Origin: Clostridium sp. CAG:914
GTDB lineage: Bacteria; Bacillota_I; Bacilli_A; RF39; UBA660
NCBI GenBank assembly: GCA_000437895.1
Contig: FR902135.1
Span: 25,925-89,924 of the forward strand
Length of the DNA: 64,000 bases
Direction of reading: 5' to 3'
In this document: positions 2,475 to 36,234 of the stretch, piece by piece
Position numbering within the stretch: the first letter of the stretch is position 1
Layout of the letters: every line of letters begins with the position of its first letter
Notes under the pieces: generated by a model
Seen by the model: only the letters and a program-made list of their open reading frames with translations
Databases searched by the model: none
Told to the model about the DNA's origin: nothing
Program-made: the position numbers and the translations under genes

Positions 2475-2502
2475 ATAAAAAGAAAGAAAGGAAGGAAAAA
2501 TA

Positions 2503-3351
2503 ATGAGTAATTTATCTAAATCTGCAAGTAAATTTTTAAAAAATAAAAATACTGTTACTGTATTGGGGGTAATTATATGTTTTATAGTTTTGATTATTGG
2601 TTATAATGTTAGAATTAATCAAAAGACAGAATTAGTTAAAGTATATTATGCTAATCAAACTATACAACCTAAAACAAAAATAACAGATGATATGATTTCT
2701 AGTGCTAATGTGCCAACATCATTTTTAGTAGGTAGTTATTATACTAATTATAACGATATAGTTGGAAAATATAGTAATTATAATACTGTTATTGCTTCTG
2801 GTAGTTTGTTTTATAATGAATTATTAATAGAAGAAGAAAATCTACCTGATTCTGTATTTTATAATGTTCCAGAAGGTGAGGTAGTAGTTAGTTTTCCTGT
2901 TAATACAGTTTCTACTTATGGTAATTCTATAATGCCAAATAATCTTATTAATGTTTATGTAAAAATGATAGATGATAGTGGTAAGATTATATATGGTAGA
3001 TTTATTGATAATATTAATGTACTTGCTGTTAAAGATTCTTCTGGTAAGAATGTATTTGAGTCAACTGAAGAAGAGAGAACTCCTGCATTTATATATTTCT
3101 CTTTGGTTGAACCTAAATATTTATTATTTTCTAGTATGAATTATATTGAAACTAATGATATAGAAGTAATTATAGTTCCTAATACTATTAAATATACTCC
3201 AGAGGATAAAACTGCTGTAGAAGTTACTAGTGATTATATAACTAACTTTATTATTGATAAGATAAAAATGATAGATGATCAAAAAGATTTATATAATGAG
3301 TTATTAAATGAAATGGCTACACAAACTAAAGATAATACAAATAATGAATAA
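2503..3351 (+). CDS. CpaB/RcpC-like Flp pilus assembly protein
   Basis: 282 aa with an N-terminal TM segment. SAF-like segment, then PEGEVVVSFPVNTVSTYGNSIMPNNLINVYV, which resembles the CpaB beta-clip block (P.G.raVsi.V....gG.i.PGd.VdV). Lies immediately upstream of the ATPase. Confidence 0.55.
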   Translation: MSNLSKSASKFLKNKNTVTVLGVIICFIVLIIGYNVRINQKTELVKVYYANQTIQPKTKITDDMISSANVPTSFLVGSYYTNYNDIVGKYSNYNTVIASGSLFYNELLIEEENLPDSVFYNVPEGEVVVSFPVNTVSTYGNSIMPNNLINVYVKMIDDSGKIIYGRFIDNINVLAVKDSSGKNVFESTEEERTPAFIYFSLVEPKYLLFSSMNYIETNDIEVIIVPNTIKYTPEDKTAVEVTSDYITNFIIDKIKMIDDQKDLYNELLNEMATQTKDNTNNE

Positions 3352-3380
3352 ATAAGAATAAAAGAATAGGGTGAATAGTT

Positions 3381-4859
3381 ATGGATATGCAATTTTCTCA
3401 AGTGGATTTTGGTCCTTTAAGACAATTTCTTGATAACGATGATGTTACAGATATTTCTTATAGTAATAATGGACAAGTTTGGGTAAAAACATTGTCTAAA
3501 GGTGTTTTTAGAGTAGAAAATACTGGAATAGATAATACTCTTATGGAAAAGATTGCTTTTCAATGTGCTAATACAATGGGTAAATCCTTTAATATGGCTA
3601 ATCCTTTTTTGGATGCTGAGAGTGCTGAGTTGAGACTTAATTTTGTTCATGATTCTATTGCAAGAAATGGAATTGCTGTTTTGATTCGTAAAACTCCTGC
3701 TAAAATTAGACTTGAAAAGAATAAGATTATTGCTGAGGATTATGTAAGAATTGATGTTCATGACTTTTTACTTAAATGTGTTGAAGGACATTGTAATATA
3801 TTAGTTAGTGGTGAAACTGGTAGTGGTAAAACAGAATTTATTAAGTATTTGGCTGCTCATACTAAAGAAGATGAAAAAATTATTACTATTGAAGATACTT
3901 TGGAATTACACTTAGATAAGATATTTCCTAAGAGGGATATAGTAGCTATGAAAACTAATAATATTGCTTCATATTCTGATGTTTTGGTTACATGTATGAG
4001 ACAGAATCCTAGGTGGATATTATTGTCTGAGGTTAGAAGCGCAGAAGCAGTTATGGCTGTTCGTAATTCTATTTCTTCTGGCCATAATATTTTATCTACA
4101 ATACATGCTGATAAAGCATCTTCTATTCCAAATAGACTATATAGTTTACTTGAAACTAATCAGGATTTAGAACAATTTTTAAGAAGTATTCATAGATATG
4201 TACAATTAGGTGTTCATATTAAAGGGTATTATAGTAAGGAAAGAGGTAGGTTTCATAGGGAGATTGCTGAGGTGTGTGAATTTTATGTTACTGAAGATAA
4301 TGAACCTAAAACTAATTTGATTTATAAGAAGACTCCTGATGGAAGGGTTACTCTTCATAATCCTACGAAGTATTTACTTGGTTATTTAGAAAGTCAAGGA
4401 ATGATTATGCCACCGGATATATTAGTAAAAGAGGAGTTTAAGGAACAAACAGATAGTCCATTAGATGAGACCATATCAACAAAAACTGTTGATAATGTTA
4501 ATGATTTAAAAAAACAAACTTCTTTTGGTCAAATTAATGGTGGATATGTAAATGGTAATCAAGGTTCGTTTGCTAACATTAATAGTATGAATTCTTCTAC
4601 TATAAAAAATGTTAATTCAAGTAATATTAATCCAAATACTATAAGTACTACAAATAATAATGTGAATGCACGTGCTGTTTATCCGCAACAACAATATATT
4701 AATCAGCAAGGAGTGGGTCAATATAACAGAAAATTTGTGCAAAATGGAAATAATATTCCTAATGTAGGACAAGTTCAAGGTACTAATCAACAAATTGTTG
4801 GCCAAAATCCTCAATATATACAGCCTAATGGTTTACCTGTTTGGCCTAATGCTAGTTAA
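3381..4859 (+). CDS. tadA: TadA/CpaF-family secretion ATPase with an Asn/Gln-rich C-terminal tail
   Basis: Walker A VSGETGSGKTEF, Asp box ITIEDTLEL, Walker B-like RWILLSEVRSAEA and His box GHNILSTIHA. The last ~130 aa are N/Q-rich low complexity. Confidence 0.85.
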   Translation: MDMQFSQVDFGPLRQFLDNDDVTDISYSNNGQVWVKTLSKGVFRVENTGIDNTLMEKIAFQCANTMGKSFNMANPFLDAESAELRLNFVHDSIARNGIAVLIRKTPAKIRLEKNKIIAEDYVRIDVHDFLLKCVEGHCNILVSGETGSGKTEFIKYLAAHTKEDEKIITIEDTLELHLDKIFPKRDIVAMKTNNIASYSDVLVTCMRQNPRWILLSEVRSAEAVMAVRNSISSGHNILSTIHADKASSIPNRLYSLLETNQDLEQFLRSIHRYVQLGVHIKGYYSKERGRFHREIAEVCEFYVTEDNEPKTNLIYKKTPDGRVTLHNPTKYLLGYLESQGMIMPPDILVKEEFKEQTDSPLDETISTKTVDNVNDLKKQTSFGQINGGYVNGNQGSFANINSMNSSTIKNVNSSNINPNTISTTNNNVNARAVYPQQQYINQQGVGQYNRKFVQNGNNIPNVGQVQGTNQQIVGQNPQYIQPNGLPVWPNAS

Positions 4860-4874
4860 GAAGGTAGGTGAAAT

Positions 4875-5771
4875 ATGTTAGAATTTATTATTATAGGTGT
4901 AATATTAATATTTATTATGGCTTATAGATCTAGTAATGGTGAAGGTGTTTACAATTTTGCCAAGAAGCAAGCTACAGTTGTATATGATAAATATGCTCCA
5001 TATACTTATAAAGTTATGCGAGAAAAAATTAAAGATTTAGGTCTTGAATTTACACCGAGACAATATGCTATTCAAATAGTTATTTTTGCTAGTCTTGCTG
5101 GGGCTATAGGTTATTTATATTTTTATAATTTAGTAGTTGCAATAATTTATGCTGTTATTGCGGTATCTACAATACCTTATATAACCTATTTAAGATGTAA
5201 GAGACAATATAGTGAATTTATATTTGAACAGGTACAAGTATATACTACGAATACTATTATGGAATTTAATACTACTAAGGCATTTGTTAAATCCTTAGAG
5301 GGTGTTGTGGAATCTGGTGTTTTAGAAGATCCTGTTTTGTCTGATGTAAAAACAATGATATCTTTATCTTATGAAAATGGTGATGTAACTGATTCGATTA
5401 GATATATGGATTCTAAATATCCATATTATATGGTTAAGAATATGCATCAATTATTTTTGCAAGTTACTAAAGAGGGCTCTAAGAATACAGATGAAACTTT
5501 TGAAAATATGTTATCTGATATAGATATTCTTGTAGAAGGGGTGTATAGAGATAGATCTGATAGAAGAAGATTTCATAAACAATTTTTAATATTTGGTGTG
5601 TCTTTATATAGCCTTATTATGTTAATACAATTAATTCTTGGAGTAGATTCTTATGTTGAAATGATAGATGGATTACTTATGAAAATATTAGTTCATGGAG
5701 TTGTATTGATTAATAGTATTTTCCTTTTAAAGGGAGAAAAATATTATAATGAGAATGTGGGGGCTGAATAA
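4875..5771 (+). CDS. tadB: TadB-like (T2SS-F family) pilus platform membrane protein
   Basis: 298 aa with N-terminal TM helices, a central soluble domain and two C-terminal TM helices. Lies directly after the ATPase. Confidence 0.55.
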   Translation: MLEFIIIGVILIFIMAYRSSNGEGVYNFAKKQATVVYDKYAPYTYKVMREKIKDLGLEFTPRQYAIQIVIFASLAGAIGYLYFYNLVVAIIYAVIAVSTIPYITYLRCKRQYSEFIFEQVQVYTTNTIMEFNTTKAFVKSLEGVVESGVLEDPVLSDVKTMISLSYENGDVTDSIRYMDSKYPYYMVKNMHQLFLQVTKEGSKNTDETFENMLSDIDILVEGVYRDRSDRRRFHKQFLIFGVSLYSLIMLIQLILGVDSYVEMIDGLLMKILVHGVVLINSIFLLKGEKYYNENVGAE

Positions 5772-6562
5772 TGTATATAGAGATTTTAATTATTGCAATA
5801 ATTGTTTTTGGATTACTTATTTTAAATACTAGAATTGATACGACTAGACTTTATAAAGAAAATCAGGGATTGTTTGATTTACTTAAAGAAAAAGATTATG
5901 AATTTCTTTTAAGAGCTAAATATGGTGATAATGTTATAGATCCTGATTCTGTTTTTAGAAAAAGAGTTTTTAAAGGATTAGCAGTTTCTTTAGTAATAAT
6001 ATTTATCTTTATTACTAAGTTATCTTTGATATACATTATAATTGCTTTAGTAGTTGGTTATTTGGTATTTAAGTCACAGTATATTGATTTGAAAAAATTT
6101 TATAAGAAACATTTAAATACTATAGATTCATTACTTCCATATTATTTAAAAAGCTTGGAGGTATTAGTGCAACATTATACTGTTCCAGTTGCTTTAGCAA
6201 GATCTATTGATGACGCACCAGAAGTATTTAAACCTGGTTTAAAAGAATTAGTTTCTAAGATAGATGCAGGTGACTCTTCAATTGAACCATATATGGATTT
6301 TGCTAGACAGTATCCGGTGAGAGATTCTATGCGTATGATGAGACTTTTATATAGACTTGGATTGGGAGAACAAGATAAAAAACATGAGCAGATGTTATCT
6401 TTTTCTAAAACAGTTTCAGCATTGCAACTTAAAGCAAGGGAACAAAAATATCAAGATAGGTTAAATCATATGGAAAGGCAAACTATGACGATGCTTGTTT
6501 GTACTGGTGGTTCTGCTTTAATTATCATGTTAATTGCATCATTTAGTATGATGGGGTTATAG
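5771..6562 (+). CDS. tadC: TadC-like (T2SS-F family) pilus platform membrane protein
   Basis: 263 aa with the same TM/soluble/TM layout as the preceding ORF. Its start overlaps the upstream stop (taatg). Confidence 0.55.
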   Translation: MYIEILIIAIIVFGLLILNTRIDTTRLYKENQGLFDLLKEKDYEFLLRAKYGDNVIDPDSVFRKRVFKGLAVSLVIIFIFITKLSLIYIIIALVVGYLVFKSQYIDLKKFYKKHLNTIDSLLPYYLKSLEVLVQHYTVPVALARSIDDAPEVFKPGLKELVSKIDAGDSSIEPYMDFARQYPVRDSMRMMRLLYRLGLGEQDKKHEQMLSFSKTVSALQLKAREQKYQDRLNHMERQTMTMLVCTGGSALIIMLIASFSMMGL

Positions 6563-6583
6563 TGTAAAATTCAATCAAAATAA

Positions 6584-6613
6584 CTAGATATTTACATGTA
6601 TGTGTGTTATAAT
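6584..6613 (+). promoter_or_regulatory. Internal sigma-A-type promoter with extended -10 ahead of the pilin gene
   Basis: tgttataat (TGnTATAAT) at 6605-6613, weak -35 tagata 17 nt upstream, and RBS aggagg at 6627-6632. Confidence 0.45.
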
Positions 6614-6640
6614 TTGTTTAAATGATAGGAGGTGAAGTTA

Positions 6641-6829
6641 ATGAAAGAAGCAACAGGTGAGGTTTCAATGACTGTAGTAACTTTAATAGCTATAGCTGTT
6701 ATAGGTGGAATATTAGCTATTTTCTGGGGACCTATTACAAATAAAATTGGTAGTTTATGGGGTAAAGATGCAACATGCCCATCAGGATATACTATGGTAA
6801 ATGGTACATGTAAGCCAAATGGTAAATAA
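6641..6829 (+). CDS. Short Flp-like prepilin (candidate major pilin), non-canonical N-terminus
   Basis: 62 aa from the ATG at 6641 (the track start 6632 is a GTG inside the RBS). Sequence MKEATG-EVSMTVVTLIAIAVIGGILAIF, with a C-terminal CPSGYTMVNGTC Cys pair. Sits between tadC and the TadE-like genes. Confidence 0.5.
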   Translation: MKEATGEVSMTVVTLIAIAVIGGILAIFWGPITNKIGSLWGKDATCPSGYTMVNGTCKPNGK

Positions 6830-6856
6830 GTATATAGGAAAGTTGGTGTTTTACGT

Positions 6857-7315
6857 ATGAGAGACGCTTTTGGTGGAGTATTTTCTACTCAACTTATTTT
6901 AGTATTTATATTTTTGTATGTTGGGTTTATGGCTATTTCTTTTACTTATGCTAAAGCTTTTAAGTATAAGAATTCAATCATAAATTACATAGAACAGAAT
7001 GAAGGTATAACTTTGAATGAAGATAAAATTGTGGGAGCAGGTTCAGTTGATTTATATCGTGTATTGAATGATTTTACATGTGAAGAGGCAGCTGTATCAA
7101 ATGAGATGGCTTCTAATGTTATTGCTAATTATTCTTGTTCTAGAGGTATTATGATTTCTGAATCAGAGGGTAAGAGTCCTGAATATATTACTTATTCTGT
7201 TTCTGTTCCAGCCAATTGGTCTCTCGGTTTCTTTGATATTTTAAAAAGTGGTACTAATAATGAAAGTGGGACTTGGTTTATTCGAGGAGAAACAAATATT
7301 TTAGTTCATGAGTAA
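6857..7315 (+). CDS. TadE-like pseudopilin, paralog 1
   Basis: 152 aa. N-terminus MRDAFGGVFSTQLILVFIFLYVGFMAISFTYAKAFKYK has the TadE-like layout: short leader, hydrophobic helix, then A.AF. Confidence 0.5.
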   Translation: MRDAFGGVFSTQLILVFIFLYVGFMAISFTYAKAFKYKNSIINYIEQNEGITLNEDKIVGAGSVDLYRVLNDFTCEEAAVSNEMASNVIANYSCSRGIMISESEGKSPEYITYSVSVPANWSLGFFDILKSGTNNESGTWFIRGETNILVHE

Positions 7316-7327
7316 TGAGGTGATAAT

Positions 7328-7816
7328 ATGAGAGATGCTTTTGGTGGAGCTTTTTCAATTCAAATATTTTTAATATTTATTTTAATATATGTTAGTTTTA
7401 TTGCTGTTTCTTTGAATTATGCTAAGGCTTTTAAGGTAAAGAGTGCTATTATAGATTATATTGAAGATAATGAAGGTATATTAAATGCTAATGATACTTT
7501 TGATGCATATTTAGATGAGAAGTTAGAAGCTGTTATTGGACAGTATAATTATCATGTTAGTGGTGTTTGTACTCCTGGTAATATGTATGATACTGATAGT
7601 GGTGAGTTAATTGGTTATTGTCATCCTAGGGGTGTTATTATTACTCTTGGAGATAAGAAAGATATTCAATCTTATTATAAAGTTGATACTTATATGGGAT
7701 GGTCACTACCTACTTTAAATTTACTTTCAGGTTTTGGAGGTAATAATGAGAATGATACTCCTATGGGGATTTGGAAAATAAGTGGTGAAACTAGATTAGT
7801 TGTTAATAGTGAATAA
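7328..7816 (+). CDS. TadE-like pseudopilin, paralog 2 (tandem duplicate)
   Basis: 162 aa. N-terminus MRDAFGGAFSIQIFLIFILIYVSFIAVSLNYAKAFKVK is nearly identical to the preceding ORF, and the two share the C-terminal W.I.GET..V. Confidence 0.5.
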   Translation: MRDAFGGAFSIQIFLIFILIYVSFIAVSLNYAKAFKVKSAIIDYIEDNEGILNANDTFDAYLDEKLEAVIGQYNYHVSGVCTPGNMYDTDSGELIGYCHPRGVIITLGDKKDIQSYYKVDTYMGWSLPTLNLLSGFGGNNENDTPMGIWKISGETRLVVNSE

Positions 7817-7827
7817 GGAGGTTAGTT

Positions 7828-8760
7828 ATGAATGTTATTGTAGCTAATGAAAATAAGAGCTTATTAAGTAGTTTAGATATAGATGTTATTAAATCTATTG
7901 ATGGTGTTTTTTCTGTTGATGAGATTATTAATACATTTGATGGTTTTTTCTTTAATAAGATGTTTCTTGATATAACGGCTATTAAAGATAATACTAATTA
8001 TTCTAATATTCAAAAACTTTCTATTGGGCTTGATATGAGTAAAGTTATTTTGCTATTGACTACACAGCTTTATAATAATAAGGGTTTTATTTCTAAGTTA
8101 ATTAGTTTTGGTATTTATAATTTTGCTAGAGATAAGGATTCTCTTATGTATTTATATATGAATCCTAATAGTTATAAAGATGTGGCTAATTATCAAATAT
8201 TAGATGATAATTTTTCTGATTCTATTGGTAGTTCTGAAAATACTTCTTCACCTAATTTAGTTACAGCTAAAGTTATAGGGTTTAGAAATGTTACTAAGTC
8301 GGCTGGTGCTACGACACTTATTTACTTATTAAAAAGAGAACTATCAAAGAGACATTATTGTGTTGCTCTTGAAGTTAATAAAAATGATTTTGGTTATTTT
8401 CATGAATCTGATATGTTTTCAGTTAATCAATCTAACTTGCAGGGAGCATTAGATAAATTTGGAAATGCGGATATTATATTAGTAGATTTGAATGGGGTTT
8501 CTTTTGATAAGTGTGATGAAATTATTTATTTGATAGAACCTTCAATAATAAAACTTAATAAAATGGTGTCATTAAATAGTGATATATTTACAAAACTTAC
8601 TGATTGTAAGATTGTTTTAAATAAAAGTTTACTTACAGAAGAAGATATTAAGAACTTTGAATTTGAATCTAATTCTTCGGTATATTTTAATATTCCACCT
8701 TTAAATGATAGAATTGATAATGGTGAAATATTAAATGGTTTTTTAGATAAGTTGTTATAA
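7828..8760 (+). CDS. TadZ/CpaE-like protein (receiver-like N-domain plus ParA/MinD-like domain with a degenerate P-loop)
   Basis: 310 aa. VIGFRNVTKSAGATTLIYLL occupies the place of the deviant Walker A KGGxGKTT. Lies in the pilus cluster. Confidence 0.4.
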   Translation: MNVIVANENKSLLSSLDIDVIKSIDGVFSVDEIINTFDGFFFNKMFLDITAIKDNTNYSNIQKLSIGLDMSKVILLLTTQLYNNKGFISKLISFGIYNFARDKDSLMYLYMNPNSYKDVANYQILDDNFSDSIGSSENTSSPNLVTAKVIGFRNVTKSAGATTLIYLLKRELSKRHYCVALEVNKNDFGYFHESDMFSVNQSNLQGALDKFGNADIILVDLNGVSFDKCDEIIYLIEPSIIKLNKMVSLNSDIFTKLTDCKIVLNKSLLTEEDIKNFEFESNSSVYFNIPPLNDRIDNGEILNGFLDKLL

Positions 8761-8810
8761 AAGAATAGAAAGGGCTATTATATGTGGCTCATTTTTCTTT
8801 TGGAGGTAAT

Positions 8811-10112
8811 ATGAAGAATAATAATAATTATATTTTAGAGTTAATATTAATATTTATAGTTACTATTTTATTTAATTTATTTATTAATGGTTTAACTAAT
8901 GATGAAGTTTGGAATTATGGATTTGCTTATAATATTTCTAATGGGTTAATTCCTTATAAAGATTTTAATATGATAATCACACCTTTGTTTCCACTTATTA
9001 TGTCTATATTTGGTAGAAATATAGTTGTTTATCATATACTAAATGGTTTTATATGTGTAGGTATATTTTATTATATGAAGAAGAACAATTCTAGAAGTTA
9101 TTACGTTACTTATGCTATTTTATTGTTTTTTGCTTTACCTAATTATTCTTTGGCTTGTTTACTTTTATTATATATAATTTTAGATTTGGAAAATAGAAAG
9201 GCTAATGATTATTTAATTGGTATTATTCTTGGTGTTACTTTTTTAACTAAGCAAAATATTGGAGTGTATTTATTTATTGCTTCCTTATTTTGTAATGATT
9301 TTAAGAAAATTTTTAAGAGAGGAATTGGTTTTATAATTCCTTGTGTAAGTATATTTATATATTTGGTTTATAATAATTCTTTATATGAGTTTATTGATTA
9401 TTGTTTTTTAGGTATAAGTGATTTTACAGGTAATTTTAATTATTATTATTCTTGTTTATTAATTTTTATTTTCTCTTTTATATATTTATTATATAAGTAT
9501 ATAAAAACTAGAAACATAAAGTTTATTTATTTACTTTCTTTTCAATTAATGGCTTATCCTTTGTTTGATGCATATCATGTTATAATTCCTTTTATACCTG
9601 CTTTTGGTTATTTTTTAGATGAACTAAAACTTTCTAAAAAGATTATACAAGTGTCTTTTGTTATCTTTATTATTTGCATTTTTAGTTATAATTTTTATTT
9701 ATATTCTGGTAAAGAATATAGTTACCCTAATGATAGTCGTGAATTTAAGTATAGAAAGCTTGATAATAATAGTATTAAATCATTAAAAAATATTAATTAT
9801 ATAATTAATAAATTAGATGGTAGAATATTTTTAATTAGTGGTTATTCTTATTTGATTAAATTAGAATTAGGATATTCAATAGATAAGTATGATTTGTTAT
9901 GTGATGGTAATCTTGGTCATGGTGGATATATGAGGATTATATCTGAATTTGATGATATCTGTTATAATAATAAATGTAGTTTTGTTGTTGATATGGATGA
10001 ATTTTATAAATCTAATGTTTCACAATATAATATTGGTATTTTGAAATATATTAGTAGTAATTATAATTTTGTTAATAATTTTGATAGTATTTATATATAT
10101 ACTAATTATTAA
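8811..10112 (+). CDS. Polytopic membrane protein, GT-C (GT39/ArnT/PMT)-like glycosyltransferase candidate
   Basis: About 433 aa from the ATG at 8811 (RBS ggagg at 8801-8805). At least 10 predicted TM helices, an early loop with NDEVWNYG (acidic DE motif), and a soluble C-terminal domain. Confidence 0.4.
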   Translation: MKNNNNYILELILIFIVTILFNLFINGLTNDEVWNYGFAYNISNGLIPYKDFNMIITPLFPLIMSIFGRNIVVYHILNGFICVGIFYYMKKNNSRSYYVTYAILLFFALPNYSLACLLLLYIILDLENRKANDYLIGIILGVTFLTKQNIGVYLFIASLFCNDFKKIFKRGIGFIIPCVSIFIYLVYNNSLYEFIDYCFLGISDFTGNFNYYYSCLLIFIFSFIYLLYKYIKTRNIKFIYLLSFQLMAYPLFDAYHVIIPFIPAFGYFLDELKLSKKIIQVSFVIFIICIFSYNFYLYSGKEYSYPNDSREFKYRKLDNNSIKSLKNINYIINKLDGRIFLISGYSYLIKLELGYSIDKYDLLCDGNLGHGGYMRIISEFDDICYNNKCSFVVDMDEFYKSNVSQYNIGILKYISSNYNFVNNFDSIYIYTNY

Positions 10113-28723: not shown

Positions 28724-28986
28724 TGGAAGAAGATATATTTTTAAAGAATTATCCTAGATTAGATTTGCATGGATGTGATAGAGATTATGCTAGGATGCTT
28801 ACTAATGATTTTATTTTAGAAAATGTTTTTTTAAAGAATAAAACAATAGTTATTATACATGGACATGGGTTAGGTATTGTTAAACATGCTGTTTATGAAG
28901 CTCTTAAATATAATAAAAATGTTTTATCATTTAAGAGTGATATGTTTAATGATGGATTAACAGTAGTAACTCTTAAAACAGAATAA
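28723..28986 (+). CDS. Smr domain protein
   Basis: LDLHGCDRDYA ... IIHGHGLGIVK. Confidence 0.7.
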   Translation: MEEDIFLKNYPRLDLHGCDRDYARMLTNDFILENVFLKNKTIVIIHGHGLGIVKHAVYEALKYNKNVLSFKSDMFNDGLTVVTLKTE

Positions 28987-29124
28987 TTGCTATATGTAAA
29001 GTGATGTAAACTTGGGGTTGAACGTTTTTCCTTTAATATTAAGGGAAAATGTTTTTTTTGTTTGTTTTTTTAAGAAATGTTTTTTTAAAAAAATAAATAA
29101 GTTAAAAAAATAGTAAAAAAAACA

Positions 29125-29152
29125 TTGCTTTTTTGCGCTGGTATGTTATAAT
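29125..29152 (+). promoter_or_regulatory. Sigma-A-type promoter of the nrd operon
   Basis: -35 ttgctt (29125-29130), 16-nt spacer, and extended -10 tgttataat (29144-29152). Confidence 0.5.
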
Positions 29153-29174
29153 CAATACAGAGTAAAGAAAGTAG

Positions 29175-31094
29175 GTGATACTTATAGATAATCATTCTCT
29201 TGAAGATTTAGTTGTAGTTAAGAGAAGTGGCCAGAGAGTGGAATTTAATTCTTTAAAGATTGCTGTTGCAATAAAGAATGCTTTTGATAGTACACCTTCG
29301 GATTATTCTAATAATGATATTAACAAAGTTTATGAAGATACATTATCATATATATATAATAATTATAAAGATAGAAAAACAATTAATGTTGAAGATATTC
29401 AAGATGTTATAGAATTGATACTTAAAAGGGATAATTATAATGATATATATGATAGCTTTTCTGGGTATCGTTTAAGAAGAAGTGAATCTAGAAAATCATT
29501 TGCTGTAAAACAACAGCATAAGTTTGTTAAAGCTATTGAAAAAATTGGTTGTGTAGATACGAGTAATTATAAGACTGGTGAAAATTTAGAAAAATTTGGA
29601 AGTATTATTTCTACAGAATATACAAAAGCTTATATATTAGATAATAAATATGTAAGAGCGTTTGAAGAAGGTAAAATATATATACATAATTTTTCATATT
29701 TTCATTTAGGTTACTTTTCTAATACAAGTTTAGATATAAGAAAACTTGTAAATAGGGAAGAATGCTTGTTTGATATTCTTAATATTATGGAAAAATCTAA
29801 GGAAGAGATAAATGGAGAAGTTAGTATTAATAGTTTTGATGATATTCTTAGTAAATATTATATAGATAAGTTTAAAAAAATATTTATTAAAAAACTATTA
29901 GATAGTTTAAATTTATTTGGATTTATAGATTTAGTTAATATAAAGAAGATTGAGGATAGGATAAATAAAGAAGGGTCTATAATAATTATTCTTGATAACT
30001 ATAGAGATATATTTGTTAATGATATGTTATTTAATATATTAAAAGTGGTGTATGATGAATCTATTAAGGATGTTTTTGATTATATGTCACTTAATATTAA
30101 AAAAATAGTTATGTTATTAAATGATAGTTATAAAGAGAATAGTCTTTATAGTATATCCATTGGTAATAATAAAACTTATGAAGGTAATATTATTAAGAAT
30201 ATTATTCTTGATTTAGTAGATGAATTTGATTATTTAGAAAATATATGTGTTGTATATAAAGTATGTGAATTATCTGATATAGATAAGATAGTTAAATTAA
30301 TATATGAAGGTAAGAATATAAAATTAAATATATTGAATAAAGAAAATAATAATAATTATGATGTAGAATATTTTAGTGATGGTTGTAGAATATATGAAAA
30401 TATTTATTCTGAAAGTATATCTATAGGGAGAATGAATGTTGCTAATACTTCTATAAATATAGCTAGATTGGGTTTTATGCATAAAGCACTTAATAAGGAT
30501 TTTTATAATGATTTGGATAATTTGATTGAATTTACTAAGAATGAATTGCTTGTTGTATATGAAGATATTGGTAATAAGATTAAGAATAATTATAATTATT
30601 TATTTGATGGGAATATATTTGACGATGAGAAATTAGATTATGGTCAGAAGATAAGAAAAGTTATTAAGAATGGTACTTTAAATATAAATTTGGTTGGTTT
30701 GTATGAATGTGCATTAATGATAGATAAGGATAAATACTTAGAAATTATGTTAAAAATAATAAAATATATAAATAAAAAGATTATATTATTGTCTATAGAT
30801 AATAAACTTAATTTTACGCTTAGTGCTATTGTTAATGATGCTAATTATGAACTTATGGATTTGGATAAGGCTATATATGGTGTTATAAAGGGAATTAATG
30901 ATAATGATTTTTATAGGAATGCTATGGTTGATTGTAGTATTGAAGAATTAAATTTATATCAGAAAATGTTTAATGGTGGATGTATATTAGAAATTAGATT
31001 GAAAGATAAATTTAGTTTAGAAAAAATAAGAGAAAGTATTATAGAACTAGTTGATAATTATGTAGGACTTGTTTATATTAAGGAGTATGTATGA
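29175..31094 (+). CDS. ATP-cone protein, degenerate NrdD paralog (no glycyl-radical or Zn-ribbon motifs)
   Basis: GTG start. ATP-cone VVVKRSGQRVEFNSLKIAVAIKNAF. GKIYIHNFSYFHLGYFSNTSL aligns with ASIHIHDLSMLTGYCAGWSL of the downstream NrdD. The C-terminus lacks R..GY and the CxxC pairs. An ATGA overlap couples it to nrdG. Confidence 0.6.
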   Translation: MILIDNHSLEDLVVVKRSGQRVEFNSLKIAVAIKNAFDSTPSDYSNNDINKVYEDTLSYIYNNYKDRKTINVEDIQDVIELILKRDNYNDIYDSFSGYRLRRSESRKSFAVKQQHKFVKAIEKIGCVDTSNYKTGENLEKFGSIISTEYTKAYILDNKYVRAFEEGKIYIHNFSYFHLGYFSNTSLDIRKLVNREECLFDILNIMEKSKEEINGEVSINSFDDILSKYYIDKFKKIFIKKLLDSLNLFGFIDLVNIKKIEDRINKEGSIIIILDNYRDIFVNDMLFNILKVVYDESIKDVFDYMSLNIKKIVMLLNDSYKENSLYSISIGNNKTYEGNIIKNIILDLVDEFDYLENICVVYKVCELSDIDKIVKLIYEGKNIKLNILNKENNNNYDVEYFSDGCRIYENIYSESISIGRMNVANTSINIARLGFMHKALNKDFYNDLDNLIEFTKNELLVVYEDIGNKIKNNYNYLFDGNIFDDEKLDYGQKIRKVIKNGTLNINLVGLYECALMIDKDKYLEIMLKIIKYINKKIILLSIDNKLNFTLSAIVNDANYELMDLDKAIYGVIKGINDNDFYRNAMVDCSIEELNLYQKMFNGGCILEIRLKDKFSLEKIRESIIELVDNYVGLVYIKEYV

Positions 31095-31816
31095 ATATAG
31101 TAGGAATGCAAAAAGTAACATTATTAGATTATCCTGATAAGGTGGCAGCAATAATATTTACGGAGGGGTGTAATTTTAGATGTCCTTTTTGTCAGAATTC
31201 TAGTTTGATAGATAAGAATGTTGGAAATGAATATATTTCTTCGGAGGAAGTTTTGAAATATTTAGAGAAGAGAAAAGGAGTAATTGATGGTCTTGTTATA
31301 TCTGGTGGTGAACCTACTATGCAACATAATTTGAAGGATTTTATTAAAAAAGTTAAAGATATTGGTATGTTAGTTAAATTGGATACGAATGGTTTTAACT
31401 CAAAGATATTAAAAGAATTAATTGATGAGAATTTAGTTGATTATGTTGCAATGGATATAAAGAATGAGATGTGTAAATATAGTGTTACTTGTGGACTTAA
31501 TCAAATAAAAATAGATAATATTAAAGAAAGTATTCAATTGTTAGAGAATTCTTCAATTGATTATGAATTTAGGACTACTATTATGAAAGAATATCATGAT
31601 ATTGAGTCTATAAAAATGATTTTAAAATTGATAGGAGATAAACCTAAGTATTTTTTACAGAATTTTAGATTAAGTGAAAATGTTCTTGATAAAAATATTC
31701 ATGGTTTTACTATTGATGAACTTAAAAGTATTCAGAGAGATTTAAAGGAAAAATATCATAATGTTAAAATAAGAGATTTAATGAATGAAAATGAAGGAGA
31801 TAAAGTATATGTATAA
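31091..31816 (+). CDS. nrdG: Anaerobic ribonucleoside-triphosphate reductase activating protein (radical SAM)
   Basis: CNFRCPFCQN cluster motif and GLVISGGEP. Confidence 0.88.
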   Translation: MNIVGMQKVTLLDYPDKVAAIIFTEGCNFRCPFCQNSSLIDKNVGNEYISSEEVLKYLEKRKGVIDGLVISGGEPTMQHNLKDFIKKVKDIGMLVKLDTNGFNSKILKELIDENLVDYVAMDIKNEMCKYSVTCGLNQIKIDNIKESIQLLENSSIDYEFRTTIMKEYHDIESIKMILKLIGDKPKYFLQNFRLSENVLDKNIHGFTIDELKSIQRDLKEKYHNVKIRDLMNENEGDKVYV

Positions 31817-34145
31817 AGTAAGAAAAAGAGATGGCAAGATAGTAGCCTTTGATATTAAAAAAATATCTGAAGCTATCACTAAGGCTTTTGAGGCTGAAGA
31901 TAAAAATTATGATGAGAATATTATTGATTTTTTGGCTTTAAAAGTTACAGCAGAATTTGAATCTAAAGTTGTTGATAATATTGTAAACGTTGAAGATATT
32001 CAAGATGCTGTTGAATCTACACTTATTAAAGGGGGATATGCTGAAGTTGCTAAGGCGTATATCTTATATCGTAAATTACATGAGAAAATGCGTAATATGC
32101 AATCTACGGTATTAGATTATAAAGATGTTGTAAATAGTTATATAAATGTAACTGATTGGCGTGTTAAAGAAAATTCTACTGTTACTTATTCTGTAGGTGG
32201 CTTAATATTATCTAATTCTGGAGCTATTACAGCAAATTATTGGTTAAGTGAAGTTTATGATGAAGAAATTGCTAATGCTCATCGTGATGCAAGTATTCAT
32301 ATTCATGATTTATCTATGTTAACTGGATATTGTGCTGGTTGGAGTTTAAAACAATTAATTCAAGAGGGTTTAGGGGGGGTTCCTGGAAAAATAACTTCTA
32401 GTCCTGCTAAACATCTATCAACTTTATGTAATCAAATGGTAAACTTTTTAGGAATTATGCAAAATGAATGGGCTGGTGCACAAGCGTTTTCATCATTTGA
32501 TACATATTTGGCACCATTTGTTAAAAATGATAAATTATCTTATCATGATACTAAGCAATGTATTCAATCTTTTGTATATGGAGTTAATACACCTAGTAGA
32601 TGGGGAACTCAAGCACCGTTTACTAATATAACTTTAGATTGGGTTGTTCCTAATGATTTAGCAGAGTTAAATTGTATTGTTGGTGGTAAAGAAGTAGGTT
32701 TTAAGTATAAAGATTGTCAAAAAGAAATGGATATGATTAATAAAGCATTTCTTGAAATAATGATAGAGGGAGATGCTAATGGTAGAGGATTTCAATATCC
32801 TATTCCAACATATTCTATTACTAGAAATTTTGATTGGTCAGAGACAGAAAATAATAAGTTGTTATTTGAAATGACTGCTAAGTATGGTACACCATATTTC
32901 TCAAATTATATTAATTCTGATATGGAACCTTCTGATGTTAGAAGTATGTGTTGCCGTTTGAGACTTGATTTAAGAGAGTTAAGAAAGAAATCTGGAGGTT
33001 ATTTTGGAAGTGGTGAATCAACAGGTTCTGTTGGTGTAGTAACAATTAATATGCCTAGAATTGCTTATTTAGCTAAAGATGAAAAAGATTTTTATGATAG
33101 ATTAACTAAAATGATGGATATTGCCGCAAGAAGTTTGAAAGTAAAAAGAAATGTTATTACAAAATTATTGGATGAAGGATTATATCCATATACGAAGAGA
33201 TACTTAGGTACATTTAATAATCATTTTTCTACGATAGGGTTAGTTGGTATGAATGAAGCTTGTTTGAATGCTAAATGGTTAAAGGATGATTTGACTCATG
33301 AAGATGCCCAAGTATTTACAAAGAATGTTCTTAATTTTATGAGAGAAAAATTATCAGATTATCAAGAAGAATATGGAGATTTATATAATCTTGAAGCAAC
33401 ACCTGCTGAATCTACTAGTTACAGATTGGCTAAGAAGGATAAAGAAAAATATCCTGATATTATAACTGCTTCTAATGATGATACGCCATATTATACGAAT
33501 AGTTCTCATTTACCAGTAGGATTTACTTCTGATATATTTGAAGCTTTGGATATTCAAGATGAACTTCAAACGTTATATACTTCTGGTACTGTATTTCATG
33601 CTTTCTTAGGAGAAAGATTAGATGGTTGGAAGTCAGCTGCTAATTTAGTTAGAAAGATTGCGGAAAATTATAAATTACCTTATTATACATTATCACCAAC
33701 ATATTCAGTATGTAAAAATCATGGATATATTACTGGTGAAGTGTATAAATGTCCAAAGTGTGGATGTGATACGGAAGTTTATAGTAGGATTACTGGATAT
33801 TATAGACCAGTTAGAAACTGGAATGATGGTAAATCAAAAGAATTTTCTATGCGTAAAGTATATGACTTAAATTGTTCACATTTGCCTAAAGATAAGAAAT
33901 GTGAAAATGAAAATAAGATAATGTTATTTGGTACAAAAACTTGTCCTAATTGTAAGATGGCTATAAAACTTTTAGATAAAGCTAAAGTTGATTATAAATA
34001 TATTGATGCTGAAGAAAATGTTGATTTAACAAAAGAATATGGTGTTAAACAAGCACCAACGTTAGTTATATTAACTGATGGTAAACCTGAAAAAATTGCT
34101 AATTTATCTAATATTAAAAAACATATTGAAGAATTTAAAATATAG
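31809..34145 (+). CDS. nrdD: Anaerobic (class III) ribonucleoside-triphosphate reductase with a C-terminal CxxC redoxin domain
   Basis: ATP-cone, IHIHDL..YC.GWSL, MCCRLRLD loop, Zn-ribbon CKNHGY...CPKCG, and glycyl-radical motif SRITGYYRPV. It ends with FGTKTCPNCKMAIKLL...APTLVI, a glutaredoxin/NrdH-like fold. Start set at the ATG at 31809 after ggag. Confidence 0.92.
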   Translation: MYKVRKRDGKIVAFDIKKISEAITKAFEAEDKNYDENIIDFLALKVTAEFESKVVDNIVNVEDIQDAVESTLIKGGYAEVAKAYILYRKLHEKMRNMQSTVLDYKDVVNSYINVTDWRVKENSTVTYSVGGLILSNSGAITANYWLSEVYDEEIANAHRDASIHIHDLSMLTGYCAGWSLKQLIQEGLGGVPGKITSSPAKHLSTLCNQMVNFLGIMQNEWAGAQAFSSFDTYLAPFVKNDKLSYHDTKQCIQSFVYGVNTPSRWGTQAPFTNITLDWVVPNDLAELNCIVGGKEVGFKYKDCQKEMDMINKAFLEIMIEGDANGRGFQYPIPTYSITRNFDWSETENNKLLFEMTAKYGTPYFSNYINSDMEPSDVRSMCCRLRLDLRELRKKSGGYFGSGESTGSVGVVTINMPRIAYLAKDEKDFYDRLTKMMDIAARSLKVKRNVITKLLDEGLYPYTKRYLGTFNNHFSTIGLVGMNEACLNAKWLKDDLTHEDAQVFTKNVLNFMREKLSDYQEEYGDLYNLEATPAESTSYRLAKKDKEKYPDIITASNDDTPYYTNSSHLPVGFTSDIFEALDIQDELQTLYTSGTVFHAFLGERLDGWKSAANLVRKIAENYKLPYYTLSPTYSVCKNHGYITGEVYKCPKCGCDTEVYSRITGYYRPVRNWNDGKSKEFSMRKVYDLNCSHLPKDKKCENENKIMLFGTKTCPNCKMAIKLLDKAKVDYKYIDAEENVDLTKEYGVKQAPTLVILTDGKPEKIANLSNIKKHIEEFKI

Positions 34146-34152
34146 GTGAATT

Positions 34153-35046
34153 TTGTACGATTCTATTATAATTGGAGCTGGGCCTGCGGGAATGACGGCT
34201 GCTATATATTTAGCTAGAGCTAATAAAAAAGTGTTAATTATAGAAAAAGAAACTATTGGGGGACAAATATCTTCGTCCCCTTTAGTTGAAAATTATCCAG
34301 GTTATGAAGGTATATCTGGTTCTGTACTTGCTAATAATATGTATAATCAAGTTGATAAACTTGGTGTGGATATTGAATTAGATGAAGTTACTGATATAAT
34401 ACCCGGAGAATTACATACGGTTAAAACACTAGATAATGAATTTAAAGCACGAACAGTAATTATTGCTACTGGAGTAAAATATAGATTGTTAGGCTTAGAA
34501 AATGAAATTGAACTAATAGGAAATGGTATTCATTTTTGTGTTTCGTGTGATGGTGCATTTTATAAAGGTAAACATGTTGCTGTTGTTGGTGGTGGTAATA
34601 CAGGAATTATTAATGCCATTGCTTTAGCTGATATGTGTGAAAAAGTATATTTAATTCAAGATAAAGATAAATTAACAGGTGAAAAAATATTACAAGATAA
34701 GTTAAAACAAAAAGTTAATGTTGAAGTTATTACAAATAGTGTTGTTAGTAAAATTATTGGTGATGATAAATTAGAAAAAATTATTATCAAAAATGGTAAG
34801 AAAGAGAATGAAATTATAGTAGATGGAATGTTTATTTCTATTGGTCTTATGCCACAAAGTGATTTCTTGAAGGGAATAATAGATTTAGATAAATTTAACT
34901 ATGCTGTTTCTTTTGATACGAAAACTAAGATAGATGGAATATTTGTAGCTGGAGATATTAGAACTAAACCGTTTAGACAGATAACAACAGCTGTAAATGA
35001 TGGTACAACGTCAGCTTTATATGCTTTAGAATATTTAGATAATTAA
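34153..35046 (+). CDS. trxB: Thioredoxin-disulfide reductase
   Basis: TTG start. GAGPAGMTAAIY (FAD), CVSCDGAF redox-active CxxC, and GGGNTG (NADPH). Confidence 0.85.
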   Translation: MYDSIIIGAGPAGMTAAIYLARANKKVLIIEKETIGGQISSSPLVENYPGYEGISGSVLANNMYNQVDKLGVDIELDEVTDIIPGELHTVKTLDNEFKARTVIIATGVKYRLLGLENEIELIGNGIHFCVSCDGAFYKGKHVAVVGGGNTGIINAIALADMCEKVYLIQDKDKLTGEKILQDKLKQKVNVEVITNSVVSKIIGDDKLEKIIIKNGKKENEIIVDGMFISIGLMPQSDFLKGIIDLDKFNYAVSFDTKTKIDGIFVAGDIRTKPFRQITTAVNDGTTSALYALEYLDN

Positions 35047-35047
35047 A

Positions 35048-35109
35048 ACAGGAAAAGTCCTGTTTTTGTTAAGAAAAACTATTAACAAGTAATCTTGTTA
35101 ATAGTTTTT
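35048..35109. terminator. Two hairpin terminators between convergent trxB and prsA
   Basis: acagga-aaag-tcctgt followed by tttt (35048-35067). Perfect 16-bp stem aaaaactattaacaag/cttgttaatagttttt (35074-35109). Confidence 0.7.
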
Positions 35110-35112
35110 AGA

Positions 35113-36234
35113 TTATTTATAATTACTGATATATTTATTATATTTTTCACCAAGATCTGTATCTTTAAATTCTAATTTTGCTTCTTTACGTAGATTAATT
35201 AATGCCTTTTGATATAGGTTACTATCATCATTTTTCTTTTCTTCTACAAGAATATTTATTATATCTTCTTTAACATCTTTTAATTCTGGTTTATCTTTTT
35301 GATCAATTTTATAAACAATATGGTAACCATATGAAGATAAGATAGGTGTTTTACTATATGTGTTTACTTCAAGGTTTTTCATTTCTTTTAAATATGCCGC
35401 ATCTAATGAAGCATTGAAAGCACGATATCCTAATTCTTCAGCAGTTATTTTGTCTTTATATTCTGTAATAACATCATCCCAAGAAGTACCTTTATTTAGT
35501 TTATCAATTATTTCATTTGCTAATTTTTTGGCATCTTCATCTGATAGTTCTTTTTCATTTTCTGATGTATCATCACTAGATACAGAAACTAAAATATGTT
35601 TACTGTTAACATCACCAAAAACTTCATTTTTATAATACTTTTCAATATCTTTATCACTAATTAAACTTTCAACATATTCATCATAATAAAGATTTCTTCT
35701 GTAGTCTAATTTTAGGTATTCAAGAAATTCTTTTTCACTCTTAAATCCATTATTTTCTAAGAATTGTTCTTTTGTAATATTTTGATATTGTTCATACATT
35801 GAATAGTAGTATTCAGCTGTTTGTTTAACACTATCATTCATTTCATTATCTTCTTTATATTTTTCATCTAGTATCATTTTATCTAAACTATTAATTAGAA
35901 TATTGATTGAGTAAGCATCTTTCATATCGTTATATAAATCATCAGCAGTATAAGTTTTATTGTTAACTGTTAAAATAGGTTGTGTACCATCTTTTAAAGT
36001 AGCAATTCTCTTTGGCCATATTATAATTACTACAATTACAGTAATAATTACACCAATTAGGAAGGCATAACATATTTTTCTGTTTGTATCATTGTCGTGA
36101 TTCAAATGTTTTATATCTGTAACCTTCTTTTTTGTTTCTTTTAAAGAAACTTCTTTTTTATTAATATTTTTTTCTTCTTTTTCTACTTTCTTTTTAGAAT
36201 TAGTAGTCTTGTCTTTCTTTGTGTTTTTTTCCAT
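35113..36234 (-). CDS. prsA: PrsA/SurA-like membrane-anchored parvulin peptidyl-prolyl isomerase
   Basis: N-terminal Lys-rich region plus a TM helix. Rotamase block SKHILVSV...SSYGYHIVYK. Confidence 0.75.
   Translation of the reverse strand: MEKNTKKDKTTNSKKKVEKEEKNINKKEVSLKETKKKVTDIKHLNHDNDTNRKICYAFLIGVIITVIVVIIIWPKRIATLKDGTQPILTVNNKTYTADDLYNDMKDAYSINILINSLDKMILDEKYKEDNEMNDSVKQTAEYYYSMYEQYQNITKEQFLENNGFKSEKEFLEYLKLDYRRNLYYDEYVESLISDKDIEKYYKNEVFGDVNSKHILVSVSSDDTSENEKELSDEDAKKLANEIIDKLNKGTSWDDVITEYKDKITAEELGYRAFNASLDAAYLKEMKNLEVNTYSKTPILSSYGYHIVYKIDQKDKPELKDVKEDIINILVEEKKNDDSNLYQKALINLRKEAKLEFKDTDLGEKYNKYISNYK

Follow-up and report, generated by a model that had tools for sequence, protein, structure and literature searches.

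Why should a bacterium keep, directly in front of a working class III ribonucleotide reductase (RNR), a gene for a reductase-like protein from which the catalytic parts are missing? The question is raised by a 64,000-nt stretch of DNA from Clostridium sp. CAG:914 (assembly GCA_000437895.1, contig FR902135.1, positions 25,925 to 89,924), hereafter the window, whose own numbering is used for all coordinates. An open reading frame (ORF) occupies 29175..31094 on the plus strand, where the operon features mapped below also lie; it starts with GTG, stops with TGA and encodes 639 amino acids, and its product is here named psi. It is followed by nrdG (31091-31816), nrdD (31785/31809-34145) and a trxB-like gene (34153-35046). 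A preliminary description had placed an intact ORF first in an nrdG-nrdD operon, joined to nrdG by an ATGA overlap, and had read it as a degenerate NrdD paralog maintained by selection. The coordinates hold, as does the overlap, in which the psi stop and the nrdG ATG share the four bases. Taken together, the comparisons that follow make it almost certain that psi is a selected, catalytically dead derivative of NrdD.

The window has a GC content of 22-30% throughout, and in DNA of ~24% GC the chance of an ORF of 639 codons is ~1e-26 (our own estimate from composition). Since the homology E-values are also far below chance, the ORF and its homology are excluded as a chance product. Pfam recognises two domains in psi: an ATP-cone (PF03477; aa 13-103, E 3e-12, 47.3 bits against a gathering score of 25.8) and NRDD (PF13597; aa 201-628, E 6.4e-29, 101.5 bits against a cut-off of 26.2). 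Among the NCBIfam models the best is PRK07111, with 161.6 bits against a cut-off of 764, and TIGR02487 gives 91.5 against 326: psi scores far below all NrdD equivalog cut-offs. BLASTP against the neighboring NrdD gives ~24% identity and recovers the block in which the preliminary description had aligned the two proteins (IYIHNFSYFHLGYFSNTSL with IHIHDLSML-TGYCAGWSL).

By sequence, the best solved structure is the NrdD of Prevotella copri (PDB 8P23; E 1e-20). An AlphaFold2 model of psi, built from a 74-sequence family alignment, has a mean predicted local distance difference test (pLDDT) score of 90.4 and a predicted template-modelling (pTM) score of 0.89. When this model was submitted to Foldseek the top matches were all class III reductases, with E-values from 1e-30 to 1e-18 and TM scores of 0.62-0.77 over the enzymes of P. 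copri, S. thermophilus and phage T4 (E 1e-30 and TM 0.65-0.77 for P. copri). The match extends over the whole barrel, and the refuting condition named earlier, homology no further than the ATP-cone, is thereby set aside. As modelled, the core of psi (aa 127-639; 29553..31091) is a degenerate version of the 10-stranded alpha/beta barrel with finger loop that characterizes RNRs and glycyl-radical enzymes. Its final strand (aa 632-637) is the equivalent of the last NrdD barrel strand, and the chain does not continue into a Zn-ribbon and glycyl-radical domain, in line with the reported loss of both. No domain is found in psi beyond cone, linker and barrel.

If psi were still a reductase, the residues on which catalysis depends should be present. 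Residue roles and numbering were taken from the paper on P. copri (Pc) NrdD (PMC11226230), the Pc sequence being rebuilt from an alignment, and 102 psi-family sequences plus 25 active relatives were mapped onto it. The glycyl-radical domain, with its R-x-x-G-Y/F motif, is absent from psi and from all 102 family members. The structural Zn site (CxxC...CxxC) is gone as well: psi has no C-terminal CxxC pairs and the columns are gapped in every psi sequence. In 97 of the 102 a deletion has removed the NxN flap. The HxHD triphosphate motif has become Y/F-x-H/N-N/D across the family and reads YIHN in the window, ahead of the betaA remnant LGYFSNTSL (29706..29732), where the catalytic Cys171 (Pc) is replaced by N183; the preliminary description had likewise noted that the block had lost its conserved cysteine. 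In the family this column is most often Ser (45 of 102), followed by Asn, Lys and His (11 each). The column of betaF Asn435 (Pc) is mostly Ile or Val, the phosphate loop (Pc 577-581) is degenerate, and loop 2 is lost, with a gap at Arg305 (Pc) in 63 of 102 members and the residues that read out the specificity site (s-site) lost or deleted.

The finger loop requires more care. Its remnant, EYFSDGCRI (30366..30392), conforms to the motif YFS[ND]G of the family, which has lost the thiyl-radical motif MGCR, and the column aligned to the MGCR cysteine is mainly Asn, Asp, Ser or Thr in the 102 members. The window protein does carry a cysteine nearby, C404, two residues past the MGCR Cys position, which HMMER nonetheless pairs with the GC of MGCR. 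We considered C404 as a preserved thiyl cysteine and rejected it as private to this strain: the position is Thr or Ser in all 120 close relatives listed, including two clusters 99% identical to the window psi. Because C404 is a private substitution, the thiyl loop counts as lost at the level of the family, and it is at that level that the earlier report of a missing MCCRL loop holds. On these comparisons psi has, beyond the barrel fold, none of the features tested for a functional class III RNR alpha chain, and its sequence marks it as catalytically dead.

Use of genetic code 4, or read-through, as the cause of the short C-terminus was considered and rejected, because relatives stop with TAG at the same place and the other genes of the window read normally with code 11. 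Could the missing radical domain instead be supplied in trans, psi remaining a radical enzyme or ribonucleotide reductase? A detachable domain does exist in the lineage, where nearly all of the nearest active relatives (group B, see below) have it as a separate ORF of ~50 aa. However, no such free-standing mini-ORF is present in the window, nor between psi and nrdG in 31 operons with this gene order; the betaA and MGCR cysteine columns hold other residues across the 102 members; and flap, HxHD, phosphate loop, loop 2 and Zn ribbon are all lost. The sequences thus essentially exclude this explanation.

What has been kept is the N-terminal part. The ATP-cone (aa 13-103; 29211..29483) had been judged a good one, and so it is: the five Pc residues that contact nucleotide (K7, R8, Y83, R87 and R91; PMC11226230) correspond to K16, R17, Y98, R102 and R106 of psi, which are kept in 102 of 102 family members. 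The cone is followed by a linker helix (29484..29552) with the motif KQQHKFVKAIEK, in which H115 and K116 are invariant and after which the NxN flap that should come next is deleted; the linker motif KQQHKFVKAIE is common to psi and to active group-B NrdDs. Mean pairwise identity within the family is 60% for cone and linker as against 31% for the barrel. The same bias is evident from individual columns: 88 are conserved at 85% or above and 53 of these fall within the first 125 residues. Since 79 of the 88 hold the same residue as active relatives, and only four core positions (F400, G403, K495 and K565) are specific to psi, there is no sign in the sequences of a new active site. Within the core, the best-conserved segment is a helix-strand block just ahead of betaA (aa 134-175).

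A non-functional remnant is expected to decay, and orthologs of psi have not. At a representation level of 50% identity, 110 proteins match psi at E <1e-30, and the ~85 full-length representatives (560-714 aa) are all without every catalytic motif. A survey of genomes of the kind proposed in the preliminary description recovered the order psi-nrdG-nrdD in 31 (one per species), with trxB next wherever the contig reaches; these are uncultured Bacilli, 'Tenericutes' or Erysipelotrichaceae. Across them, identity to the window proteins is 76-88% for NrdD, 50-66% for NrdG, 47-64% for TrxB and 37-49% for psi, which is thus the fastest-evolving member of the operon yet is never broken. The ratio of nonsynonymous to synonymous substitution (dN/dS) was calculated by the Nei-Gojobori method (NG86) against two syntenic conspecific contigs (L081 and L082). 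It is 0.15-0.20 for psi overall, 0.03-0.09 for cone and linker (aa 4-125) and 0.18-0.25 for the barrel; for NrdD it is 0.04. Values so far below 1, in orthologs free of frameshifts or decay, are those of a protein held by purifying selection, most strongly at its cone, and not those of the plain pseudogene that had been named as the alternative. By this evidence psi combines catalytic loss with selection, as a pseudoenzyme does.

Selection notwithstanding, psi is a place of unusual change between strains. Together with its upstream intergenic region (28975-30770) it forms a divergence hot spot, with 76-95% nucleotide identity to L081/L082 as against 98-100% in the flanks; psi itself is 83-95% identical to its conspecific counterparts. 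Synonymous divergence (dS) is 0.27-0.29 in psi and 0.04-0.08 in most flanking genes, nrdG, nrdD and trxB included, and divergence between conspecific psi alleles peaks at codons ~130-330. This pattern suggests that a divergent psi allele was imported by recombination, rather than that constraint alone was relaxed. Smaller divergent patches relative to the same two contigs occur at ~24376 (the start of dtd) and ~27775 (a histidine kinase).

Where did psi come from? The description of psi as a degenerate NrdD paralog stands in so far as it is a degenerate NrdD homologue, and fails in so far as it implies a duplicate of the adjacent gene. On sequence comparison psi is a descendant of the MGCR/formate-type NrdDs (PRK07111-like), the adjacent enzyme being of MCCR/thioredoxin type (PRK08270); the assignment follows mainly from best hits and from the shared cone and linker motifs. 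The nearest catalytically intact relatives (~32% identity) are MGCR-type NrdDs of ~757 aa, here termed group B (L031-L080, from related metagenome-assembled genomes, MAGs), which have near-identical cone and linker motifs and are accompanied by a small NrdG of 189 aa. A crude neighbor-joining tree, with weak bootstrap values (0.42 and 0.24) and some saturated distances, places psi in one clade (102 sequences plus two longer forms) grouped with the active group-B NrdDs; in the same weakly supported tree the root-to-tip distance of psi is ~2.8 times that of active relatives.

More distant psi-like proteins show intermediate decay. The protein at locus L085 shares 42% identity with group B and still has the beta-hairpin and a segment as long as the flap; both cysteines are gone and it ends at the same barrel strand. 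At L085, L086/L087 and L091 the psi-like gene is divergent from an MCCR-type nrdD, an orientation that implies promoters of its own; nrdG follows nrdD in L085 and L086, and L087 and L091 carry only part of nrdD at the contig end (the N-terminal part in L091). Further NrdD-like proteins without MGCR and glycyl-radical motifs lie outside the psi clade and in unrelated contexts: P0250, P0255, P0257, P0268 (in which the radical motif RRxxGY has become RRVNTY, Gly to Asn) and P0244 (GCA_045600465.1; L090 6001-8091), whose gene sits between a PadR regulator and genes for lipoate-protein ligase (lplA) and glycine cleavage (gcv). Dead NrdD derivatives may, to judge from their sequences, have arisen more than once.

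The genes downstream of psi appear to form a working module. The nrdG gene (31091..31816) encodes a radical S-adenosylmethionine activase of NrdG2 type (TIGR02495, 218 bits against a cut-off of 131); at 241 aa it is ~45 aa longer than the model, and it overlaps the longest nrdD ORF by 32 nt. The nrdD itself (31785..34145) is bona fide: it reaches 1142 bits against a cut-off of 548 for the PRK08270 equivalog, has an MCCRL finger loop and an RITGY radical motif, and is fused C-terminally to a glutaredoxin/thioredoxin-like domain (aa ~708-778). Its true start is likely the ATG at 31809 (778 aa, as called in relatives), with which the overlap with nrdG shrinks to 8 nt. The last gene, trxB (34153..35046), encodes a thioredoxin-reductase-like flavoprotein (Pyr_redox_2 in Pfam). 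From its gene content the module looks like a self-contained class III RNR that is dependent on thiols, not on formate. Two features of the working NrdD deserve mention. Its flap reads N-S-T, the second Asn of NxN being Thr in 24 of 24 orthologs. It also has an ATP-cone of its own (81 bits in Pfam) with mostly intact ligands, the equivalent of Pc R87 being His in 21 of the 24.

Given terminator-like hairpins at both ends and a putative promoter ahead of psi, the four genes look like one transcription unit. A hairpin with a 14-pair stem and T-run resembling an intrinsic terminator (29020..29054) ends the upstream smr unit and marks the 5' boundary. The putative promoter (29125..29152) consists of a -35-like TTGCTT (29125-29130), a 16-nt spacer and an extended -10, TGTTATAAT (29144-29152). 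Its -35-like and -10 hexamers are kept in conspecific strains, in which the rest of the intergenic region is only ~76% identical; the -35 fits just three of six positions and a generic promoter scan did not list the site. The operon is closed by a palindromic terminator-like hairpin (35074..35109), which may also serve a convergent minus-strand gene (35113-36234). Initiation of psi is less clear. The ribosome-binding region (29166..29186) holds two candidate starts: the listed GTG (29175), which falls within a long Shine-Dalgarno-like element, AGAAAGTAGGTGAT (29166-29179), and an in-frame ATA (29184) at the site where several inspected orthologs have ATG behind the same GGTGA element. The start codon is thus uncertain, and translation of psi may begin at a non-canonical ATA or begin inefficiently. 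An Rfam scan of the whole window found one tRNA only, with no riboswitch upstream of psi, and a search for NrdR boxes gave no match in 28986-29175, the total number of matches being at chance level.

This layout bears on the simplest account of why psi persists, namely that it is the functionless relic of a resident NrdD displaced by an arriving nrdG-nrdD-trxB, its ORF kept open for the sake of promoter and coupling. Displacement fits the absence of any assembly, among 80 loci, that holds both psi and a group-B NrdD. The relic account can also call on the single promoter/terminator frame, the poor or atypical start codon, the fast evolution of psi and its tight junction with nrdG, which in all 31 loci is an overlap (ATGA in the window) or a spacing of no more than 7 nt. 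However, coupling would not keep specific residues, and the cone ligands are universal in the family with a cone dN/dS as low as that of housekeeping genes; the core, too, is constrained. psi is free of overlap with nrdG in conspecific strains, where nrdG has its own Shine-Dalgarno sequence (AAGGAG), and homologues with their own promoters, divergent or stand-alone, are likewise intact. Retention merely for translational coupling is further argued against by the fact that psi adjoins MCCR-type nrdD/nrdG in two gene orders, one of them with its own promoter. We consider the relic account improbable.

What, then, is being selected? The preliminary description had offered several roles, among them a dATP/ATP sensor and a scaffold for NrdG; the pattern of conservation favors the nucleotide sensor, and the scaffold gets no support from the data. 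On balance we lean, if only slightly, towards psi being an ATP/dATP-sensing pseudoenzyme that acts on or with the class III reductase with which it is predicted to be co-transcribed and translationally coupled. The selected activity would be binding of ATP or dATP at the cone, and that psi binds adenine nucleotides is probable. psi would then influence the class III RNR system in trans, either sensing nucleotides for it or regulating it as a partner. This could plausibly happen if cones associated with one another, or with cores, according to the nucleotide bound, as within P. copri NrdD dimers and tetramers, where cones pair across monomers and dock on neighboring cores in a nucleotide-dependent manner (PMC11226230). 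The dead barrel would serve as an oligomerization scaffold, and a cone carried on it could join or mimic NrdD assemblies. Whether the partner regulated is NrdD or NrdG itself is a narrower proposition, and one we hold to be possible but somewhat doubtful. The most specific version is more tentative again: psi could be the founder of a set of trans-acting ATP-cone regulators on dead barrels, a stand-alone subunit for allosteric activity control, responding to the dATP/ATP ratio by turning the unrelated MCCR/thioredoxin-type reductase, or its activation by NrdG, on and off via nucleotide-bridged cone contacts.

Several observations weigh against a sensor acting on the neighboring enzyme. A second sensor is not obviously needed, since the working NrdD already possesses a cone, most of whose ligands are intact. 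The two proteins belong to different subclasses and share ~24% identity, and any interface between them would therefore be a new acquisition. Within the same genomes psi changes much faster than NrdD (37-49% identity vs. 76-88%), and because the psi allele was apparently swapped between strains, with nrdG and nrdD unchanged, tight co-adaptation at the level of residues is unlikely. Finally, the distant psi-like genes of L089 and L092 have no RNR gene in the available flanks.

Some of the same facts bear on a different form of partnership, in which psi, like yeast Rnr4, would be a non-catalytic structural partner – a barrel-mediated hetero-oligomer that stabilizes NrdD or supports half-of-sites activity – with its cone in the usual cis role. 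The barrel is complete and confidently folded in the AlphaFold2 model and by Foldseek, the block at aa 134-175 is the best-conserved part of the core, psi and NrdD are (as predicted from gene layout) co-expressed from one operon, and in P. copri NrdD a single monomer of each dimer is active (PMC11226230). The subclass difference between psi and the adjacent NrdD tells against such pairing, as do the loss or deletion of loop 2 and the s-site read-out residues, the weak conservation (31%) and quick evolution of the core, and the fact that some family members adjoin no nrdD. We regard a structural partner as rather unlikely.

The genes at L089 and L092 raise, in turn, the prospect that psi was recruited outside ribonucleotide reduction, its cone sensing adenine nucleotides or the dNTP pool (for example in a stress, replication or phage checkpoint) and its proximity to nrd genes reflecting ancestry only. 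The other degenerate family in L090, beside lplA/gcv, points the same way, and the divergence hot spot between strains is a pattern often seen in genes with frequent allelic exchange. Yet the four-gene operon is strictly kept in 31 species, and three further subfamilies adjoin nrdD in another orientation. psi has no additional domain; PADLOC defense-system models gave no match, and viral contigs yielded an unrelated ATP-cone match only and no psi. Recruitment outside ribonucleotide reduction is for these reasons unlikely, to about the same degree as a structural partner.

Non-catalytic members of the RNR family are known from other settings. Yeast Rnr4, an R2 paralog without catalytic activity, forms a demonstrated heterodimer with Rnr2 and is needed there for assembly of the cofactor. 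Both it and psi are RNR-family proteins without catalytic or cofactor residues, retained beside an active enzyme; Rnr4, however, is a class I beta protein, whereas psi is of alpha type and comes from another subclass than the adjacent enzyme. The beta-herpesvirus R1 homologues (M45/UL45) are catalytically dead RNR large subunits with other roles and thus, like psi, dead large-subunit scaffolds under selection; in contrast to psi, which is bacterial and class III-derived with constraint mostly in the cone, they are viral, class I-derived and without conserved ATP-cone function. The logic proposed for psi is of the kind used by NrdR, the transcriptional repressor of nrd operons and the known case of a cone that serves purely as a sensor, in which a non-catalytic cone reads ATP/dATP. 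But NrdR lacks a barrel and binds DNA through an N-terminal Zn ribbon, whereas psi has neither Zn ribbon nor DNA-binding domain, and no NrdR-box-like site lies ahead of its operon.

With the MGCR/formate-type enzyme of P. copri (8P23; PRK07111), psi shares cone ligands, linker helix, the 10-stranded barrel with finger loop and many structural core residues; unlike it, psi is without the glycyl-radical domain, Zn ribbon, family-conserved relay cysteines, NxN flap, HxHD, phosphate loop and loop 2. With dATP bound, that enzyme shows no order in its NxN flap or anywhere in the glycyl-radical domain past residue 676 (PMC11226230). It is exactly flap and radical domain that psi is without, and it ends at the equivalent of residue ~676. 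Nevertheless, O2-cleaved or dATP-inhibited NrdDs are damaged or reversible states of an active enzyme, whereas in psi the condition is genetically fixed and the active site is also gone.

The relatives of psi provide a second departure from the usual NrdD plan. In group B the glycyl-radical domain is a separate ORF of ~50 aa at 44 of 47 loci and is unsplit at two (L034 and L072). Just past the Zn ribbon the ~757-aa NrdD runs out in a degenerate tail (EGV.MEKIN..D.C..C). The small ORF, which lies before the gene for the 189-aa NrdG in any of the three relative frames, has its own ATG, is highly conserved (M...VGEGVKFDRIRRITGYLVGTLDRFNNAKK.EV.DRVTHG..) and carries the glycyl-radical motif. Examples, all outside the window, are found at ~3015-3170 of L031 and ~8290-8445 of L045, and also in L044 and L036. 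L044, a single MAG, has two class III RNR sets side by side (2493-5197 and 5980-8994): a 731-aa NrdD and a 169-aa NrdG stand directly upstream of a split group-B NrdD, its mini-ORF and its NrdG. The group-B mini-ORF resembles the free-standing radical domain GrcA/YfiD. Spare-part radical proteins are, according to a 2026 review, known for formate lyases only (PMC13450708); free-standing radical mini-proteins beside truncated NrdDs would carry the 'spare-part' concept beyond those enzymes.

Recognition of psi has a practical side, for it belongs to a large undescribed family of >100 clusters at 50% identity, with ORFs preserved at 560-700 aa and mainly from uncultured low-GC Bacilli of gut and rumen. 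At least one source (JGI) labels a family member as an active 'ribonucleoside-triphosphate reductase (formate)', and metabolic reconstructions using such labels could credit genomes that carry psi with a formate-dependent RNR that they do not have. The preliminary description knew of no described function for such a protein, and our literature search likewise found no description of a dead NrdD, though most papers in subscription journals were outside its scope and the result is not proof of absence. The family also bears on allosteric control. Structures explaining how ATP-cones control class III enzymes date only from 2024-2025, and in the mechanism they describe the cone signals within its own polypeptide to the NxN flap and glycyl-radical domain (PMC11226230, PMC12662201). 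psi keeps cone and linker, minus exactly those downstream elements, and so is a natural test case for further uses of a cone, such as acting in trans, driving oligomerization or buffering nucleotides. Should psi prove to be a trans-acting regulator, it would be the first regulatory pseudo-RNR from a bacterium, and would represent a natural separation of the overall-activity site from the catalytic polypeptide in a class III RNR.

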